This document shows positions 7,698-57,086 of a stretch of DNA of 64,000 nt, one piece after another (the first letter of the stretch is position 1; each line of letters starts with the position of its first letter). The notes beneath the pieces were generated by a model that made no database searches, was not told the origin of the DNA, and was given only the letters and a program-made list of their open reading frames with translations. The translations under genes were made by a program, and so were the position numbers. Source of the DNA: Callorhinchus milii (Eukaryota); contig NW_024704761.1 in assembly GCF_018977255.1 (NCBI RefSeq), forward strand, positions 1,984,001 through 2,048,000, given 5' to 3'.

Positions 7698-8243
7698 GTC
7701 AGTGCCCTCACACACTCACACTCACACACACACTACACACTCACCGCCGTGTCTGTGNNNNNNNNNNNNNNNNNNNNNNNNNNNNNNNNNNNNNNNNNNN
7801 NNNNNNNNNNNNNNNNNNNNNNNNNNNNNNNNNNNNNNNNNNNNNNNNNNNNNNNNNNNNNNNNNNNNNNNNNNNNNNNNNNNNNNNNNNNNNNNNNNNN
7901 NNNNNNNNNNNNNNNNNNNNNNNNNNNNNNNNNNNNNNNNNNNNNNNNNNNNNNNNNNNNNNNNNNNNNNNNTACACACTCACCGCCGTGTCTGTGGACA
8001 GGTCAGTGCCCACTCACACTCACACACACACTCACACACTGCACACACACACACACACTCACACACACACACACTACACACTCACCGCCGTGTCTGTGGA
8101 CAGGTCAGTGCCCGCACACACTCACACCACACTACACACACACACTCACACACTGCACACACACACACACTCACACACTGCACACACACACACACTACAC
8201 CCTCACCGCCGTGTCTGTGGACAGGTCAGTGCCCGCACACACT

Positions 8244-8274
<31 letters not shown>

Positions 8275-8425
8275 ACACACACACTGCACACACACACTAC
8301 ACACACACACATTCACACACACACACACTGCACACATACACACTACACCCTCACCGCCGTGTCTGTGGACAGGTCAGTGTCTGCACACACACACACACAC
8401 AGCACTGACACTACACACACACACA
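7669..8425 (+). repeat. Tandem amplification of the GALR2 exon-1 3' end plus splice donor, interleaved with (CA)n
   Basis: Unit TACAC(A/C)CTCACCGCCGTGTCTGTGGACAGGTCAGTG has its donor GT at 7698, 8002, 8104, 8225 and 8373. A further copy is cut by the gap at 7734-7757. Confidence 0.93.
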
Positions 8426-8479
8426 GCACTGACTGACACCGAGACACCGGCAGACAGGGAGACTGCGTGTGTGGTGTGT

Positions 8480-39639: not shown

Positions 39640-39751
39640 AATAATAATAATCCTTGCATTTGATATAGCGCTTTTCACGTCGGGAGGACGTCCCAAAGCG
39701 CTTCACAGAACACACTGTAAAGTGAATTGACCGTATATTTGTGGGCGAACG
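39640..39751 (-). mobile_element. SINE 3' fragment
   Basis: Matches the 3' ~110 nt of the young SINE family. Confidence 0.85.
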
Positions 39752-40095
39752 CACTATAAGGATATAAGGCACTATATCCAATGCAAGTAGTATTATTATG
39801 TACCTACCGGTCTTGGGACAGCATCTGCAACCGCCTCTTCAACCACAAGGAGGCGTCACGATCCAAGCTAATGGTCCTCCCACCGGCACTCCCGAGCTCT
39901 GTGGGGCCGGGGCTCCGGGGGAAAGACGACAGGAACTCACGGGCTTCAGTGACCCACGGGCTGCAGAGCTCTGGGGGGGGACGGGCAGCGAGGGTGGCGG
40001 GTCACTGCCGGCCAACGAGCGATGAGCTCGTAACAACAGGCAACATACGGCAGAGGCCGGGAATCCCAAACAGAAACCCGAGTCGCCGGGAACAT

Positions 40096-40417
40096 TACTG
40101 GGAGCTCAGCGGTTAGAGCGCCCGCCTCACGCGCGAGAGACCCGGGTCCGCTTCCCGGCAGGTCAGGGCGAAACCTTGGGCAAGTTTCCTTACTCCGCCC
40201 GCCTGATAAGAATCCCTCAACGGGCAAACAAATATATAATAATTTGGTCACTTCGATCCACGGCTGTTCGTGGGACAGACGCTGCTGTGCGCAGTTGGCT
40301 GCCGCGTTTCGCCCACAAATGTACAGTCACTTCACTTTACAGCCTATGCTGTGAAGCGCTTTGAGACGTCGAGGAGACGTGGTAAGGCGCCGTGTCCAAC
40401 GCGAGGATTATTATTAT
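40096..40417 (+). mobile_element. GC-shifted copy of the tRNA-derived SINE inside a CpG island
   Basis: Same layout as the consensus ('accttgggcaagtttccttactcc', 'gaagcgctttgagacgtc', 'ggattattatt') but with many AT-to-GC differences. Confidence 0.85.
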
Positions 40418-41084
40418 GATAACGCTCAGCAGGTCAGGCAGCATCCATGGAGAGAGGAAAGTGGGTTAACGTTTCAGGTCGATGCCCTTTCGTTCTATGT
40501 CTCTCTCCGCAGCCCAGCAATCGCCGCGGGGCTGACACGTCACCCGCACTGACCTTCACACAGCGCCAGCGAGTCGGCCCGGGTTCGTGTGTGTGTGGGG
40601 GGTGGGGGGGGGGGAGTACAAAAAAAAACATGGCTTTGGGCGTTGGCCAAAAAAAAATGTATTTTTATCTATTTTTTTTTAAATTTTAACCGTTTCCTTT
40701 TCGGCCCCGTTTCTCGGAGAACTTTTCCTCGCAGGTCACTCCCGACTCGGGAGCCGGAACCGCCCCCCGACTACATCGCAGGTACCGCGGTCAATACTCC
40801 CTTCCCGAAAAAACAACAGTAACAACTCACCACCACCACCACCACGGTAATTAACCACAGCGGTCGGCCGGCGGCTGTGCCCCGCGACGGCCGGGCCCGC
40901 GATCGGCTGCCGCGCTCCGCCCCCGCGAAGCGCTCCCCGCGGGGGGGGTGGGGGTGGGGGGGCGCGTCCCGCGGAACGCTTCTGAGACGTCTCGGAGGGT
41001 GCGATGAGAGGCGCTGTTATCCAAGTGCCAGAATTATTATTATTATTTGTGTTGGGTTTGTCATCGTCTGGTGAAGGGTGGGGG

Positions 41085-41572
41085 GGGGTCAGGATGGGTG
41101 GGGGGGGGGGTGGGGGGGGGGGGTCAGGATGGGTGGGGGGGGGGTCAGGATGGGTGGCGGGGGGGGAGGGTCAGGATGGGTGGGGGGGAGGGTCAGGATG
41201 GGTGGGTGGGGGAGGGTCAGGATGGGTGGGTGGGGGAGGGTCAGGATGGGTGGGTGGGGGAGGGTCAGGATGGGTGGGGGGAGGGGGGTCAGGATGGGTG
41301 GGGGGAGGGTCAGGATGGGTGGGGGGAGGGTCAGGATGGGTGGGGGGAGGGTCAGGATGGGTGGGGGGAGGGTCAGGATGGGTGGGGGGGGGGTCAGGAT
41401 GGGTGGGGGGGAGGGTCAGGATGGGTGGGTGGGGGCGGGTCAGGATGGGTGGGGGGGGATGGGGGGAGGGTCAGGATGGGTGGGGGGGGGTCAGGATGGG
41501 TGGGGGGGGATGGGGGGAGGGTCAGGATGGGTGGGGGGGGGGAGGGTCAGGATGGGTGGGGGGGGGGTCAGG
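41085..41572 (+). repeat. (GGGTCAGGATGGGTGGGGG..)n array directly upstream of the avidin TATA box
   Basis: About 20 units of ~21-25 bp. Confidence 0.95.
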
Positions 41573-41616
41573 GGCGGACACACACAGACTTGGCCGCGGC
41601 TGTCAGTGCGGAGGGG

Positions 41617-41622
41617 TATAAA
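41617..41622 (+). promoter_or_regulatory. TATA box of the avidin-like gene
   Basis: GGGTATAAAG, 63 nt upstream of the ATG at 41680, which has good Kozak context (TCCATGG). Confidence 0.75.
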
Positions 41623-41679
41623 GCCCCGGAGTCTGGGCTGAGCCGCTCTGTCTGTGTGTGTGTGTCTGTGTGTGTGTCC

Positions 41680-44600
41680 ATGGCCGCCCTGTGCCGCCTG
41701 TGTGTGTGGGGGTGTGTGTGGGTGTGTGTGTGGGTGTGTGTCCTGCCCACCGCCCGGGTAAGTCAGGCTGCGCTGCGCTGTGGGGAGGGTGGGGTGTGGG
41801 GTGGGGAGGGGAGGGGGTGGGGGTGGGGTGCGGGAGTGTGGGGTGGGGGGGGGTGGGGGTGGGGAGGGGTGGGTTGTGGGGTGGGGGGGGGGGGTGTGGG
41901 ATGGGTGTGGGATGGGGAGGGGTGTGGGGAGGGTGTGGGGGAGGGGTGGGGAGGGTGGGGAGGGGGTGGGGGAGGGTGGGGAGGGTGGGGAGGGGGTGGG
42001 GGAGGGTGGGGTGGGGAGGGGTGTGCGGGGGGGGGGTCTCTCCCTCCCGGTGTAGCCGGGGTTGGGGCTCCCTCCCCCCGGGCTCGGCGCTGACCCTGTC
42101 CCCCCTGTCCCCCCCCAGGCTGAGGGCTGTAACATGACCGGTCTCTGGCGCAGTGGTCTGGGCTCCGCTGTGCACTTGGCGGAGAGGGGCGGCGGTGCGC
42201 TCCGCGGCCGCTATATGACGGCGGTGGAGGTGCAGAAGGGAGACGCCGCTCCCGAGAGCGATGTGATGGGGGTCAGGAACACGGGCAGGAACCCCACATT
42301 CAGCTTCTCGGTGGCCTGGGCGGCAGGTACTGACCACCCACCCACCCACTGACCAACCACTGACCACCGACCACCGACCACCCACTGACCACCGACCACC
42401 CACTGACCACCCACTGACCACCCACCACCCACTGACCAACCACCCACCCACTGACCACTTGACCACCCACTGACCACCCACTGACCACCCACTGACCACT
42501 GACCACCCACTGACCACCCACTGACCACCCACTGACCACTGACCACCCACTGACCACCCACCTGACCACACTACCACTGACCACCCACTGACCTGACCAC
42601 CCACTGACCACCCACTGACCACCCACTGACCACCCACTGACCACCCACTGACCACTGACCACCCACTGACCACCCACTGACCACCCACTGACCACCCACT
42701 GACCACCCACTGACCACCCACTGACCACTGACCACCCACTGACCACTGACCACCCATTGACCGACCACTGACCACTGACCACTGACTGACCACTGACCGA
42801 CCACTGACCACTGACCAGTCACTGACCACTAACTAACTACTGACTGACCACTAACCACTGACTGACCACTGACCACTCACTGACCACTGACTGACCACCC
42901 ACCCACTAACTAACCACCCACCCACCAGCTACTAACTACCCACCAACTACCAACTAATTACCCACCAACTACCTACTAAATACTAACTAATTACCCTCTG
43001 GCCAATTAACTGCCAACTCCCTACTCAGTGACTACCCCCTAACTACCGCTTAAACCTCCTCTTCACCACCTCCTTCTCCCGGTGTCACTGCAGTAACTCC
43101 CGAACCGAGGCTCACGGTGATCTGGAACTGGGGTTTGCAAAGGGTTTGACGCAGTAACTGGACTTAGGGTTTACTACAGTAACTAACTCTCACCCCCCTC
43201 ACGCTCTCACCCCCTCATACCCTCACACCCTCACACCCTCACCCCCTCACGCTCTCACCCCCTCACCCCCTCACCCCCTCACGCTCTCACGCCCTCACCC
43301 CCTCACGCCCTCACCCCCTCACGCTCTCACCCCCTCACCCCCTCACGCCCTCACGCTCTCACCCCCTCACGCTCTCGCACCCTCACCCCCTCACACCCTC
43401 ACGCTCTCACCCCCTCACGCTCTCACACCCTCACCCCCTCACACCCTCACCCTCTCACACCCTCACCCCCTCACACCCTCACACCCTCACCCCCTCACTC
43501 TCTCACACCCTCACACCCTCACGCTCTCATCCCCTCACGCTCTCACACCCTCACCCCCTCACGCTCTCATGCCCTCACCCCCTCACGCCCTCACACCCTC
43601 ACCCCCTCACACCCTCACGCTCTCACACCCTCACCTCCTCACGCTATCACCCCCTCACCTCCTCACACTCTCACACCATCACCCCCTCACGTTCCTCACC
43701 CCCTCACCCCCTCACGTTCCTCACCTCCTCACCCCCTCATGCCCTCCCATCTTAAGCTCTTTGAGACGTCTTGACAGTCTTCCAGACCTAAAGCGCTCCA
43801 CACAATGCACCGCAAGGTGAGTTGACCTTACGCGTGCGTTTGCTCGCGCGTGTCTGCGTGCACACAGGCTCCACCACCTCCTGGGTCGGGCAGTGCTTCG
43901 TGCAGGAAGACGGACAGGAGGTCCTGAAGACCATGTGGCTGCTGAGATCGTCTGCGACAAGCCCTCAAGAGAACTGGGCAGCCGTGAGGTGAGCGACATC
44001 TGCCCCGGCGCTGGCAGGGAGACACTCCCCGGGCGGGTTAACAACTCTTTTGTGAGCAAATGGAGAGAAAGTTATCAGAATGAAAGCCTTTGGCCACGAG
44101 CAGCTGCTGAAGGTCGGACCACATGTGAGGCAGAGACTCCCCACCCCTGCAGCCCCCACATACACACATTTTGGAGCCACCTCATCCCCGAGGAGACCCC
44201 AGTTCCCCCACCCCCACTCCCCAAGGGGTAGTGGAAATCCGGAACTCTGTTCCCCGAAAGATTGTGGACGCCGGATCCATTCACATTCAGTACTGAGGCG
44301 GAGAGCTATTTGTTAGCTCAGGGGATCAAGGGATATAATAATAATAATATATTATTTTATTATATGGGACAAGGGTAATTGGAGCTGAAGTACACATCAG
44401 CCTTGATCTTACTGAATGGCGGAACAGGCTCGAGGGGCTGAATGGCCTCCTCCTGCTGCTATGTGGTCACCCGGCTTCATGAGGGTGACCTTGAGAATCA
44501 GGTCAGCAATATGCTGAGTGTCCAACATCGTGCGCATGTAGCAAAGTGCGGGGAAAGAGCGGTGATTTGCGATGCCGACAACAGCAAGGCTCAGGGTGCG

Positions 44601-44775
44601 TTCTCGGTGCTCTTGTCCCCGCCTGCACCACTCTCTGTGATGGAGGGTTGTGTGGGAGCCGGTGTTTACTGTTCTCTCCCGTCTTTGTGTTTCTTTCTCC
44701 CTCAGGATCGGGGAGGACACTTTCCACCGCAGCCCTGGCAATGTGGTATCTGAGCAGCTGAGGGCGGGCGCATAA
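41680..44775 (+). CDS. Avidin-family biotin-binding protein, secreted, 158 aa, 4 exons
   Basis: Exons 41680-41757, 42119-42326, 43868-43988, 44706-44775. Translation MAALCRLCVWGCVWVCVWVCVLPTAR/AEGCNMTGLWRSGLGSAVHLAERGGGALRGRYMTAVEVQKGDAAPESDVMGVRNTGRNPTFSFSVAWAA/GSTTSWVGQCFVQEDGQEVLKTMWLLRSSATSPQENWAAVR/IGEDTFHRSPGNVVSEQLRAGA*. It carries the avidin hallmarks C-x2-TG-x-W, LGS, YxTAV, PTFxFxVxW, GQCF and EVLKTMWLLRS, with the same four-exon layout as chicken avidin. AATAAA at 44804. Confidence 0.93.
42329..42900 (+). repeat. (CTGACCACCCA/CTGACCA)n array at the start of avidin intron 2
   Basis: Begins within the donor sequence GTACTGACCACC; dozens of TGACC-containing units. Confidence 0.95.
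43188..43740 (+). repeat. (CTCACCCC/CTCACGCT/CTCACACC)n octamer array in avidin intron 2
   Basis: Directly visible 8-bp periodicity. Confidence 0.93.
44318..44465 (+). mobile_element. CR1-type LINE 3' end (shark HER1/HE1-like tail)
   Basis: 'tcagccttgatcttactgaatggcggaacaggctcgaggggctgaatggcctcctcctgctgctatgt'. Related tails near 34690 (plus) and 51070 and 56410 (minus). Confidence 0.65.
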
Positions 44776-46289
44776 CAGCAGCCGTCCAGCGAATAGTGTC
44801 ACCAATAAAGCAATGTCCACTTGATCTTCTTTAACGTGTGTCACTTGTCAGTACTTGTCGGCTGCATACACTGTGAGGCATCATCTGTAAAGCTCATCCA
44901 CATAAGGTCACAATAACCATTGCGTTCGAATACAGAGCCTCATCACGTCAGGAGGACATCTCAAAGCGCTTCGCAGGATTTATTGTGTAGTGCTTGTATT
45001 TGTGGGCAAACCCGGCAGCCAATTTGCTCACAGCAAAGTCCCGCAAACAGCCATGAAGTGAGCAACCGCTTTTATTTCAGGGGATTGTTGGCCAGGACAC
45101 CGGGAGAGAGAAACTCCATTCACTTTTCAATTAGCCCCACGGTTTAACGTCTCATTCAAAGCTCGGCACTGCACTGGAGCGTCAGCCTAGTCTGTGAACT
45201 CGCAGCAGAAGGCAGAAGTCCCGACGTGGGGCTTAGACTCGCAGCAGAGGAAAGGACAAGACATCAACGAAACAGGAACACGGTTGTAAGCGATTCAGCG
45301 GCCACTCTCATCGGTCTGAAACCAAGAGAACGCTGTCTACTGTTTGTGAATTTTGATACTGTTTCCATGGTGATGCGCTCTGCATGAGATTAAATCATAA
45401 TTATCGCATCATGCAATATCAAATGGGAGGAGGACACAGTGATTGTTACCTGAGCTAACCGAGTCGCGGTGTTGGGTTAATTGGTATTCAACCCAGGAGA
45501 ACTAGGAATTTGTCCATTTATAAAATGCCAAGAACTTTGAGCCTCTTTACACACAACGGGAACAGAACCAGGTTACGTCCTGTTGACAGGACAGGGTGGT
45601 TGTTAATGGGGGGGGGGGAGGTGGCTGCTGAATGGAGGCGGTTTCTTGAGCAGGTTTGACTGTAATGACTACTTGAGAACCATGGGAACGGACGGCATAG
45701 GAGGGGGCCATTTAGCTGACGTTCCCGTGGTCGGTGTCGGCTCCTGGTGGAAGCCTCCCAGCCTGACCCCGAGCCAGGGGAACCCGCTTGCTCTGCGTGT
45801 GTCGGCCAAATCTTACAAAATACCCCCATTGCAATGATCTGCTCTAATGTCTCTCTGTGTATCTCTCATGTTACTGGATTGATTTCCATTCTCCTCGTGA
45901 TCTCGAGCAGCTGTGACCCATAACTGACTTGCCTCTCCCCACCGCTTTCTGAATCACTCGTCCCTCTCTACAGTCTTCTGGCGTAATCTCTGGATCTGCA
46001 AACTTCTGGACAATGATTGATCCAAATTCCCCGTTTCCCGAAACTAAAGGAACTCTAAATAGGGGGCGAATGCTGTGTGATCTCCCTCGGTGTAACCGCC
46101 CTGAGCTCCCACAGACCCTGCCTCACAGCTGTCAAAAGTTATTGTATATTTTGAGTGCATAGTTCAAAGGCCCCCCAAATGTGATGTGTTTTAGGGCCAC
46201 CCCTCCCCGCACCCCTTATTCTTTAATCTGGCCTTGCAACCCCTTCCCCCCACCCCCCATCAAGTTATTGTTCACTCCCCCACCCCCAG

Positions 46290-51799: not shown

Positions 51800-52000
51800 G
51801 AGGCGTCCCGCCCCAAACCCGCCCATTCTTTCTACGCACAGGACCACGCAAAAAAAAGACAAACCCGCCCGATTGGGCGGGAAACCCGCACAACCCGCCC
51901 ACACTGCGCTGCCCGGGGGCGGGGCCTGGGCGGGGGGCGGGGCCTGGGCGGCGGGGGGCGGGGTCAGGTCTACGCGTCTCTCAAGATGGCGGCGGCGGCG
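51800..52000 (+). promoter_or_regulatory. MRPS7 TATA-less promoter: CCAAT box, tandem GC boxes and a YY1-type motif over the start codon
   Basis: GATTGG at about 51871, GGGGCGGGGCCTGGGCGG twice (about 51915-51950) and CAAGATGGCGGC at 51982-51993. Confidence 0.7.
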
Positions 52001-55000
52001 GTGACGGGTTTGTTCATCAAAAGCCGAGTCCCGGGGTGAGGGGTCAACCCGCGGATGTAGTGACTGTGTGTCTGTCTGTCACTGAGGGTGGAGTGACTGT
52101 GTGTCTGTCTGTCACTGAGGGTGTAGTGACTGTGTGTCTGTCACTGAGGGTGTAGTGACTGTGTGTCTGTCTGTCACTGAGGGTGTAGTGACTGTCTGTC
52201 TGTCACTGAGGGTGTAGTGACTGTCTGTCTGTCACTGAGGGTGTAGTGACTGTGTGTCTGTCACTGAGGGTGTAGTGACTGTGTGTCTGTCTGTCACTGA
52301 GGGTGTAGTGACTGTCTGTCTGTCACTGAGGGTGTAGTGACTGTGTGTCTGTCTGTAACTGAGGGTGTAGTGACTGTCTGTCTCGCCTTTATCACCTCAA
52401 GGCCGGACTATGGGACCTCTCTCCTCGTCGGCCTTCCCCACACCTCCCTCCACACTGCAGCTCATCCAGAACTCTGCAGCTCTGTCCCGCACCAGACACC
52501 GCGACCACATCACTCCCACCCTCGCCCTCACCCTCGCCCTCACCCTCACCCTCGCCCTCACTCCCGCCCTCACCCTCGCCCTCACTCCCGCCCTCACCCT
52601 CGCCCTCACCCTCACTCCCGCCCTCACCCTCACCCTCACCCTCACTCCCACCCTCGCCCTCACCCTCACCCTCACTTCCGCCCTCACCCTCACTCCCGCC
52701 CTCACTCTCGCCCTCACTCCCACCCTCACTCCCACCCTCATCCTCACTCCCACCCTCGCCCTCACCCTCACTCCCACCCTCACCCTCACCCTCACCCTCA
52801 CTCCCGCCCTCACCCTCACTCCCGCCCTCACCCTCGCCCTCACTCCCACCCTCACTCCCACCCTCACCCTCGCCCTCACCCTCACTCCCGCCCTCACCCT
52901 CACTCCCACCCTCACCCTCACTCCCACCCTCGCCCTCACCCTCACCCTCACTCCCGCCCTCACCCTCACTCCCGCCCTCACCCTCGCCCTCACTCCCACC
53001 CTCACTCCCACCCTCATCCTCACTCCCACCCTCGCCCTCACCCTCACTCCCACCCTCACTCCCACCCTCGCCCTCACCCTCACTCCCGCCCTCACCCTCG
53101 CCCTCACTCCCACCCTCACCCTCACTCCCACCCTCACTCCCACCCTCGCCCTCACCCTCGCCCTCACCCTCGTCCTCACTCCCACCCTCGCCCTCACCCT
53201 CACCCTCACTCCCACCCTCGCCCTCACCCTCGCCCTCACCCTCACTCCCACCCTCGCCCTCACCCTCACCTTCACTCCCACCCTCGCCCTCGCCCTCGCT
53301 CGCCTCCACTGCTTCCCATCCGGCAGAGGATCGAATTCAAGATCCTCATCCTCACCTACAAGGCCATTCGCGGCCTCACTCCCTCCTCCCTCTCTGACCT
53401 ACTATCCCCCTACCTACCCGCCCGTACCCTCCGTCCCTCTGGCTCCGGTCTGCTCCACATCCCCCGCCCCAACCGCCCTACCATCGGTGGTCGGGCCTTC
53501 AGCCTCTCAGCCCCGAGGCTCTGGAACTCCATCCCCAGTGCCTTCGCCGCTTCAACAACAACAACAACAACAAGATTCCATTTATAGAGCGCCTTTCACG
53601 TCAGGAGGACGTCCCAAGGCGCTGCACAGTTGGGTCATGACCCGAGCAGGGGGGAAATGGTCAGGGTGAGGGGAGGGAAGGGAGGGAGAGAGGAGGGGGA
53701 AATGGTCAGGGTGAGGGGAGGGAAGGGAGGGAGCGAGGAGGAGGAAGAGAGTCGAGAGGGGAGCTGAAGGCACGGTCAAAGAGAAAGGTTTTGAGACCGG
53801 CCTTGAAGGAGGAAAGGGAGGAAGCAAGGCGAAGGCACTGGGGGATGGAGTTCCAGAGCCTCGGGGCTGAGAGGCTGAAGGCCCGACCACCGATAGTAGG
53901 GCGGTTGGGGCGGGGGACGTGGAGCAGACCGGAGCCAGAGGAACGGAGGGTACGGGCAGGTAGGTAGGGGGATAGTAGGTTGGAGAGGTAGGAGGGAGCA
54001 AGGCCGTGAATGGCCTTGTAGGTGAAAGGCTTCCTCCCTTTCCTCCTTCAGGGCCGGTCTCAAGACCTTTCTCTTTGACAGTGCCTTCAGCTCCGCTCTC
54101 GACTCTCTCCCCCCTCCTCCCTCCCTCCCTCCCCTCCCCTCCCCCTGACCATCTCCCCCCTCCTCGCTCCCTCCCTCCCCTCCCCTCACCCTGACCATTC
54201 CCCCCTCCTCGCTCCCTCCCTCCCCTCCCACTGACCATTTCCCCAATGCTTGGGTCCCGACCCAACTGTCCAGCGCCTTGGGACATCCTCCCGACATGAA
54301 GGGTGCTCTATAAATGAAATCTTGTTGTTGTTGTTGAGGGTGTAGTGACTGTGTGTCTGTCTGTCACTGAGAGTGTAGTGTCTATATGTCTGTCTCTTTG
54401 TTACTGTCTACACCAGACTCCTGCATCTTGTGGAAGGACATCATGTATTTCTGGCCAGAGTTCACTCTCTTGCCCTCTGCTCCCTTCTATGTTAATTAAC
54501 TTTTACCTCAATGTCCCCCTCACAGCTGGAAAAACATATACCTTCTTTTTAAAACCCACCGTTGCCTGTGTAACCTGCAGGGTAATCCCGGTGAGATGGA
54601 GCCGTTACAGTCAGAATTACCTGGAGCCAGAGGTCAACAGGGAATACTATCGCGCTCCAGTCACAGAGCTCAGCCAAGAGGAGAAGGATATTCAGGAGCT
54701 CAAGAGGGTTCGACCGATAAAAGCTGCTCAGAACAGTATTACCAGCTCGGTCTTTTATGATCCTCTTTTAAGGTCAGTGATAATAATAATAATAATAATC
54801 CTTGCATTTGATATAGCGCTTTTCACGTCGGGAGGACGTCCCAAAGCGCTTCACGGAACACACTGTAAAGTGAATTGACTGTATATTTGTGGGCGAACGC
54901 GGCGGCCGATTGCGCACAGCAATGTCCCACAAACAGTCGGGGATTGAAAATGACCAATTTATTATTGTTTTTGGTTTTGGGGGGATTATTATTAGGCTCT

Positions 55001-57086
55001 GTGTGGAGTAAGGAAACTTGCCCGAGGTTTCGCCCTCTGCCTGGAATTGAATTCAGGTCTCTCACTTGCAAAGCGAGTGCTCTAACCACTGAGCTACAGG
55101 ACTCCACGATGGGGTTCAGATGAGTTGAATTCTTGCTCAATTGCCTGAACCTCACAAATATATATATATATATAACATATATGTGTTTTGTCTCAAATGC
55201 TACACTTTCTAAAGTCTTAGTAACTATTTAGTGTCTAAACCCAACTGCTAACTGTGACCTGGCTCTGGAGTTTATGAGCCACTGTACATGTTGGCCTGGT
55301 TGCAGATGGTGAAGGATTATTTTTTTCAATAAATTCTTTCAGCAAATTCATCAATATGATAATGACGGGAGGACAGAAAAAGTTGGCTCGATCCATTATG
55401 AATGAGGTACGGTTTGCCATTTCTGCTTCTTTTTTATAACAGGTGTCGTTTGACGTTACGCTAGTTTGAGAAAATAAACTCAGAACCATGCAGTATAGAT
55501 TTACATTTACACAGCGTCTTTCACAGCGGGAGGATGCCCCAAGGTGCTGGACAATTGGGGTTTGCACCCGAGCGAGAGAAGACCTACATCAAATGCAAAG
55601 GGTTATTATTATTATTATTAAACACAGAACAAAGAACAAATCTTGGATCTTCTTGTACTGTCTTCTACAAGCCCAGCACCTTGGGACGTCCTCAAGACGT
55701 GAAAGGCGCTATACAAATGTAATTTTGTATTCTGTTCTGTGGGACATTATCACGCTGGCAGTGACCCATCACGACAGACTGTACTATGCATCTGCTTATC
55801 AGTGTGGCCACCCACATCACACATACTTTGATATAAACAGTGCCTCTGTTCTCTTGCACAGACCTTTGAGCTTATTAAACGGAAGCAGGTTGAGCTGTAC
55901 CACAAGGCTCCAGAGGCCAATAGAGAGAACATTGAGTGTAACCCCTACAAGATCTTCCACCGGGCTTTGGAAAACTGTAAACCTGTCATTGGATTAACTA
56001 ATATTCAGCGTGGCGGCAAGACCTACCAGGTAAACCTCGCTTCTGACTGATTACACCGTCATTCCACACGCACAAGTTTCCCAATTTTGGACAATTTAAA
56101 AAAAAAATCACAAATAGTTTTTTATACTCGGTGTCTCTCCTCCCCTGCTGATCAGATTTTCTGGGGTTGTGGGTGGAGGTGAGAGAGAGATTTTCCTCTT
56201 CTCCTGCACACACTCCCCGTGGCTGAGAAGAGAAATTGACCACATTCTTTGAGGTCTTAGCACTGCTCTGCTGTCAGCCAATGGAGGTATCAGAACCATA
56301 GATTTACAGCACAGACGACGGCATCTTGACCCATCGTGTCTGTGCTCGAAGATGTGTGAGAACAGAAGGGATGATTCACTCAACATCCTCCCACATACTG
56401 ACAGACAGGAGGCCATTCAGCCCACCATGTGTCACTCCCCGTGTTTCTGAATTGCCTTTCTTTAATAACTTCCCACTTGCCAGCTTCCCCACTTGTGTTT
56501 TTTCACTCCCAGGTTCACTTTTGATCTCTTGTTCCGGCTTCAAAAGCCACCAGTGTATTCGTGACTGTAGTAATGATTTCCAAACCCTATCGACCCTCTT
56601 GAGAGAAGAAATCCCTTCTACCCTCTCCCCACCTGCTATGATTTCCACCAAAACAGGGAATGCAAACTCGCTTTAACACCCGGTGCGAGGGACAAGGTCT
56701 CTTGACAGTGTAGCTGTTCCTCCTGTCCCCTGCCCTCAGCATTGCACTGCAGTGTCAGCCTTGACTGTGAGCTAAAGTCTTGACATAGGTCTTGAACCTT
56801 CTGACCGTAAGGCAACTGAGCCAAGCTGATATCTTGATGAAATTAATTGTCGTTGATATTATAGGTTCCAACACCACTGAAGGACAACCGCCGACGTTTC
56901 CTGGCCATGAAGTGGTTGATCACACATTGCCAGGAGAGCAAGTCTCTGCAGACACACATGTCCATCCAGCTGTCACAGGAGCTGCTCGCTGCGTTCAACA
57001 ACGAGGGCAACGTCATCAAGAGGAAACACGACCTGCACAAAATGGCCGAGGCAAACCGAGCCTTTGCCCACTATCGGTGGTGGTGA
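51986..57086 (+). CDS. MRPS7: Mitochondrial ribosomal protein S7, 231 aa, 5 exons
   Basis: Exons 51986-52035, 54581-54772, 55343-55406, 55862-56029, 56865-57086. Contains [74 protein letters not shown] and [19 protein letters not shown]. Confidence 0.97.
52056..52382 (+). repeat. 28-32 bp minisatellite (GAGGGTGTAGTGACTGTGTGTCTGTCTGTCACT)n with an internal inverted repeat
   Basis: About 10 units; the array resumes at 54337-54380 after the L2 block. Confidence 0.93.
52511..53297 (+). repeat. (CCCTCA/CCCTCG/CTCCCA/CTCCCG)n hexamer array of about 790 bp
   Basis: Explains the low-complexity ORFs (TPTLAL, PHSHPR, EGEGGS). Confidence 0.95.
53553..54024 (-). mobile_element. L2-type LINE 3' fragment inserted antisense into the host L2
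   Basis: (AAC)n tail at 53553-53572 followed by the reverse complement of the same 3' UTR and RT end. Confidence 0.9.
54780..55105 (-). mobile_element. tRNA-Ala-headed SINE, full length
   Basis: Near-identical to the family; its tail starts 8 nt into MRPS7 intron 2. Confidence 0.93.

Follow-up and report, generated by a model that had tools for sequence, protein, structure and literature searches.

GGTCA words in the minisatellites of the avidin gene of Callorhinchus milii as probable passengers of G-rich repeat growth

The avidin locus and its neighbours

The window considered here is a stretch of 64,000 nucleotides from the chimaera Callorhinchus milii, in which a GPCR gene (galanin-receptor-like) is followed by LLGL2-type, avidin, TRIM (with PRY-SPRY), S7 and NT5C-like genes. 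Pfam backs the first five of these families, and no Pfam family was found for the presumed NT5C exon. Under these names the gene order is like that of human 17q25, and the S7 family gene is presumably MRPS7. The neighbours of chimaera avidin are thus of the LLGL, TRIM and S7 types, whereas chicken avidin is located on Z, so positional orthology of the two genes is doubtful. The ribosomal-S7 gene (51987–56030) carries two long minisatellites right after its exon 1 and, further on, an inverted pair of dispersed repeats (about 53560–53830 and 54030–54335) that are 79% identical.

On the minus strand, a stretch at 39808–39970 resembles an exon in having a 54-residue open frame as well as signals for an acceptor and a donor; it lies in a CpG-rich patch (39701–41250), further donor-like sites occur near 40554 and 40830, and no Pfam match was obtained for the candidate exon. 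These features suggest a divergent minus-strand transcript, and the array upstream of avidin may therefore sit between two promoters.

Identity, exons and splicing of the avidin gene

The first-pass annotation of this window had recognized an avidin gene, and this identification is borne out. Four exons with GT-AG introns (Table 1) give a single open frame of 158 residues, and exons 2 and 3 match the Avidin family PF01382 with E values of 5.5e-10 and 1.4e-11 and scores of 40.1 and 45.2 bits, above the cut-off of 24. The best single-domain matches among solved structures are zebavidin and xenavidin. Two Callorhinchus milii database entries match the exon-2 peptide at 100% identity, and the junction of exons 1 and 2 agrees with a database protein (P0004, UniRef V9LEJ9). 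The join of exons 2 and 3 is present in contigs from all four sequencing runs, which come from three studies, the end of exon 2 being recognized by eye, and a 717-nt joint of exons 3 and 4 appears in the contigs of one of the four runs. Since the contigs run from exon 3 into the end of exon 2, the gene is spliced across its array-filled intron 2.

Two cysteines (disulfide) and five tryptophans are invariant in 10 of 10 aligned sequences, and the tyrosine of the second strand region, of the biotin-pocket aromatic class, is retained in the chimaera protein; zebavidin, xenavidin and chicken avidin share the Cys, Tyr and Trp residues with it. Zebavidin also has four exons, with coding sizes of 87/211/120/42 nt against 78/208/121/70 nt in the chimaera. 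Eight sharks and rays, as well as gar, have relatives at 50–56% identity, and several of these species are live-bearing. No further avidin paralogue was found in the 64-kb window by tblastn.

A 2026 catalogue of fish avidins, which adopts the RefSeq version, already includes the chimaera protein in its supplementary tables (PMC13425791). This RefSeq model, XP_042198489.1 (P0005, 206 aa), omits the signal-peptide-like exon 1 and begins instead in a frame further upstream that is joined to intron-1 sequence (39870–40030 and 42059–42118). UniRef V9LEJ9 backs 41680–41757 as exon 1, and the N-terminus of the RefSeq model is probably mis-annotated. TG microsatellites at 41640–41741 cover part of the 5' UTR and extend into coding exon 1, where the leader is rich in Cys, Val and Trp; the upstream extension of V9LEJ9 differs from the in-frame sequence of the window, a mismatch that suggests a length-variable TG repeat in the 5' UTR.

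Table 1. Features of the avidin gene and its tandem arrays (positions in the 64-kb window)
Feature	Position	Strand	Remarks
Upstream G-rich minisatellite	41075..41575	+	unit about 21 nt; 21 GGGTCA; 26 GT-box words
Last GGGTCA copy with abutting GC box (GGGGCGG at 41571)	41565..41577	+	putative seed of the array
TATA box, TATAAA	41617..41622	+	sequence motif, predicted
Coding exon 1	41680..41757	+	78 nt; hydrophobic, signal-peptide-like; part is TG microsatellite
Intron-1 G-rich array	41780..42023	+	without GGTCA; G4Hunter mean 2.82
Exon 2	42119..42326	+	208 nt; Pfam and structure matches
Intron-2 minisatellite	42329..42902	+	mixed 11-nt and 7-nt units; 50 TGACC
Degenerate tail of intron-2 array	42903..42996	+	without TGACC
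Second intron-2 minisatellite	43189..43746	+	C-rich 8/16-nt units; without GGTCA
Exon 3	43868..43988	+	121 nt; Pfam match; contig joins
Coding exon 4 to stop	44706..44775	+	70 coding nt; AATAAA at 44804

Tandem arrays in the promoter and intron 2

Upstream of the gene, the first-pass annotation had counted about 20 copies of GGGTCA ending about 45 nt before the TATA box, and the recount gives 21, all perfect and on the plus strand (41086–41570), ending 46 nt before TATAAA. This places the array near the transcription start, the position expected of a regulatory promoter VNTR. The spacers between the half-sites range from 14 to 29 nt with a mode of 15 nt (7 of 20), and their variation arises through the length of the G-runs, so that the geometry is not fixed. 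The GT boxes (GGGTGG) are interleaved among the half-sites within 501 bp, and the array is a predicted G-quadruplex former, with a G4Hunter mean of 2.35 and 16 quadruplex motifs. The 5' flanks of the half-sites are G-rich in 21 of 21 cases; monomeric receptors require A/T-rich 5' extensions of the half-site. A relationship to the 16-nt core of human hypervariable minisatellites (as given in PMC9069542) was considered and dismissed, since the upstream unit matches it at 11 of 16 positions and a score of at least 11 is found in 3771 of 5000 shuffled units.

Dozens of TGACC had also been noted at the start of intron 2, and 50 are in fact present (42331–42896), the first of them 4 nt inside the intron (42327–43867). 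These words had been read as nuclear-receptor half-sites on the minus strand, a reading that fails for nearly all of them: 47 of the 50 are TGACCA, which is TGGTCA on the minus strand, 2 are TGACCG and 1 is TGACCT, and the half-site RGGTCA is therefore found only once in 50. The description of the gene as bracketed by the two arrays holds for the promoter and exons 1 and 2, which are the parts actually flanked, and three further arrays without GGTCA lie in the gene as well. To call the two arrays unrelated was loose, in that their units have GGTCAG and TGGGT in common, on opposite strands; this likeness reaches p of about 0.02 against free shuffles and 0.18 once GGTCA is held fixed, when 17.6% of shuffles match it. 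Beyond GGTCA it is thus insignificant, and a common origin of the arrays is not demonstrated. No copy of the intron-2 array was found elsewhere in the window by blastn.

Two further readings of the intronic array were discarded. Amplification of the splice donor disagrees with its content of GT, which is the real donor plus just one other. The array with its tail (42329–42996) also forms a run of 55–59 branch-point-like CTRAC words, shifting to the ACTAAC type in the tail; these words are roughly 1 kb away from the acceptor, exon 2 is joined normally to exon 3 in transcripts, and no role as a branch-point array is apparent.

Arrangement of the receptor half-sites

Oestrogen palindromes are lacking from both arrays, as are inverted pairs, everted pairs and half-sites of the progesterone type; the palindrome with a 3-nt spacer that marks classical EREs and PREs occurs in neither. 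Between 37970 and 49520, no PRE with at most one mismatch was found. The sole ERE of the window at this threshold, an imperfect one at 44906, was set aside, about two being expected by chance per 64 kb by our estimate. Closely spaced pairs at 0–8 nt (DR0–DR8) are absent from the upstream array. The intronic array yields 29 DR5-like and 9 DR1-like pairs from its 11- and 7-nt periods, mostly with mismatched half-sites; with DR1–DR5 taken as two RGKTCA words 1–5 nt apart, the intron holds 40 pairs, of which one has a single mismatch and none consists of two perfect half-sites, which leaves no such element in the strict sense. Any period of 7–11 nt coincides with some named DR spacing.

Widely spaced direct half-sites, that is, PuGGTCA words in one direction at least 10 nt apart, are a different matter. 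All 21 upstream copies have this anatomy, as had been claimed, and only 1 of the 50 intronic words fits the consensus. In the work of Kato et al. from 1995, a 15-nt spacer reportedly gave the best activity. The title of that paper and the passage citing it in PMC3064803 present widely spaced direct half-sites as a receptor-responsive arrangement, and retinoic acid elements are reported to function with their half-sites as much as 150 nt apart (PMC3064803). Because the upstream array shares the anatomy of a known receptor-responsive arrangement, it could plausibly respond in a reporter assay; the same does not hold for the pair of arrays.

GGTCA in the other arrays of the window

All null tests were drawn from the 64-kb window. 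Its 47 merged tandem arrays occupy 6462 of 64000 bases, and the test set consisted of the 16 arrays of at least 90 bp, one of which was split to give 17; the 31 shorter arrays, one with a single GGTCA, were excluded. Two of the 5 arrays at avidin carry GGTCA, as do 3 of the other 12 (Fisher p=0.60), a weak control given that it comprises 12 arrays from one window. The first-pass annotation had itself reckoned that an equal frequency of GGTCA in other minisatellites of the genome would speak against its interpretation, and the finding that the avidin arrays are no richer goes part of the way there, in a small sample limited to the window. One of the non-avidin arrays adjoins a GPCR exon (7973–8433) and the other two lie in an intron of the ribosomal-S7 gene (53650–53746 and 54106–54229); the latter are copies of one dispersed repeat, which leaves four independent GGTCA events.

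At the level of words, at least two GGTCA hits among the five avidin arrays have p=0.014 for a single pre-chosen word, the word having been picked post hoc. A recurring 5-mer with all four bases is common to 17 of 136 array pairs, and a 5-mer with at least three bases to 65 of 136; when the five avidin units are shuffled, some four-base 5-mer is shared in 6.5% of cases and a word of at least three bases in 87%. GGTCA units are over-represented window-wide, with 5 among 17 where 1.17 would be expected (p=0.003; p=0.02 for four independent events), the unit lengths behind the expected count being our choice among the periods of the repeat finder. This excess is real, is not tied to avidin, and its cause is not fully explained. 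The commonest four-base words over the 17 long arrays are CTGAC (6), GGTCA (5) and ACTGA (5), all above background. Arrays within 300 bp of CpG-rich patches number 12 of 17, a comparison that is partly circular and was set aside. GGTCA reaches its high copy number simply because each unit contains the word once and the units are tandemly amplified.

Regulation of avidin in birds and fishes

Progesterone receptors recognize a half-site other than GGTCA. Bird avidin, whose chicken form the first-pass annotation had cited as a steroid-induced gene, is induced mainly by progesterone and also by oestrogen, and in other tissues by injury or infection (PMC13425791, PMC3811995); no progesterone-type site occurs in or near the arrays. 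Zebrafish avidin is expressed with a peak in the ovary and also in the testis and male gills (PMC3811995), and its knockout shows the gene to be dispensable, so control of the egg-white type cannot be assumed in fishes. The biology of the gene does not force a hormone reading. The literature search, which covered few subscription papers, returned nothing on the repeats of this locus or on the regulation or hormone response of chimaera avidin.

Origin and possible function of the arrays

The arrays are probably ordinary G-rich, quadruplex-prone minisatellites in which GGTCA is a passenger motif and not a selected hormone switch. Both would have grown from local seeds, the upstream array as the proximal GGGTCA/GC-box stretch was duplicated again and again, the intronic array out of the first bases of intron 2, and the likely engine would be slippage or unequal exchange in quadruplex-prone DNA with G-runs. 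Such slippage and exchange are established behaviour of minisatellites. As growth copies whatever short word the seed contained, GGTCA is likely a passenger, and with one motif per unit dozens of copies come at no cost. If the arrays influence avidin expression, they would do so incidentally, and they are presumably neutral. Besides the two arrays, with their motif counts, and the spliced gene, many similar arrays are present by neighbouring genes, and the S7 gene has an analogous layout, with an unexpanded GC-box/GGGTCA junction before the start codon and arrays directly after exon 1; this layout appears similar to that of avidin without any hormone role being invoked. Counting against passenger motifs are the 21 perfect hexamers near the TATA box with their modal spacer of 15 nt, the p=0.014 for a pre-chosen word, the 6.5% of shuffles with a shared word, the window-wide excess and the DR5/DR1-like spacing in the intron.

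In kind, the upstream array resembles the promoter-proximal VNTRs of insulin and TRIB3. The human insulin VNTR, whose G-rich 14-bp unit is repeated 363 bp upstream, forms quadruplexes and has an effect on transcription (PMC11336075); like the chimaera array it is G-rich, quadruplex-prone and placed shortly before the TATA-type promoter of a gene for a secreted protein; the 33-bp VNTR of the human TRIB3 promoter likewise amplifies a unit with a transcription-factor-like site in a promoter (PMC7425993). Copy-number variation and an effect on transcription have been demonstrated for insulin, whose unit is unrelated, and the TRIB3 site is conserved across mammals as one copy, with an activity that follows the number of copies (PMC11336075, PMC7425993), whereas the chimaera array is known from its sequence. 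By this precedent, the array might adjust basal avidin transcription hormone-free, through its GT boxes (Sp/KLF-type) or G-quadruplexes, and the 26 GGGTGG and 16 quadruplex motifs per 501 bp beside the TATA box fit such a role; equally G-rich, quadruplex-prone arrays elsewhere in the window (4274, 8810, 41780, 52510) argue against it, and we regard it as rather unlikely.

A hormone-dependent role of the upstream array alone, as an oestrogen, retinoid or orphan receptor enhancer built of half-sites and half-site/Sp1 composites with the intronic array irrelevant, is quite unlikely. It would draw on the 21 perfect half-sites at 14–29 nt with GT boxes between them and a last copy abutting the GC box, on the widely spaced retinoic acid elements (up to 150 nt, PMC3064803), on the oestrogen induction of bird avidin beside that by progesterone (PMC13425791), and on ER, which reportedly acts through half-sites close to Sp1 sites and through tandem ones (PMC2853111); the same source states, however, that isolated half-sites are not bound by ER dimers in vitro and calls the role of tandem half-sites in vivo uncertain (PMC2853111). 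The irregular spacers, the frequency of GGTCA among the arrays of the window and a literature search that gave no hormone-response data for any chimaera avidin also weigh against it. The elements of Kato et al. (1995) and the far-upstream ovalbumin enhancer are like the upstream array in having several half-sites in the same direction and no palindrome, but they were functionally tested, where the chimaera array offers a match of letters, and the ovalbumin sites are scattered (five predicted in 1.6 kb) and form no minisatellite (PMC8358702). That a half-site/GC-box element amplified by minisatellite growth makes the avidin promoter oestrogen- or retinoid-responsive, with a strength set by repeat number, seems decidedly doubtful.

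The first-pass annotation had gone further and proposed that both arrays were built or kept jointly as an egg-protein hormone module tunable through copy number, which is highly improbable. Both arrays do amplify GGTCAG, with p=0.014 for a pre-chosen word, the intronic spacing is DR5-like and DR1-like, and the title of Kato et al. (1992) gives the 5-mer TGACC as the ovalbumin motif. However, 49 of the 50 intronic words miss RGGTCA, whereas the predicted ER sites of the ovalbumin enhancer are TGACCT in five of five cases (PMC8358702, Table 1); a named DR spacing is to be expected of any 7–11 nt period, the avidin arrays are not enriched over other arrays (Fisher p=0.60), progesterone-type sites are lacking, and zebrafish avidin is found in ovary, testis and male gills and is dispensable in the knockout. 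Overall, the original observation is partly confirmed and its interpretation partly supported.

Significance

On the likeliest reading, the locus adds another motif-bearing minisatellite to a region that is already full of such repeats, and it carries the caution that any motif of five or six letters appears enriched through tandem copying. If the upstream array did prove ligand-responsive, a cartilaginous fish would provide a natural hormone enhancer that arose by repeat expansion and is tuned through its copy number.
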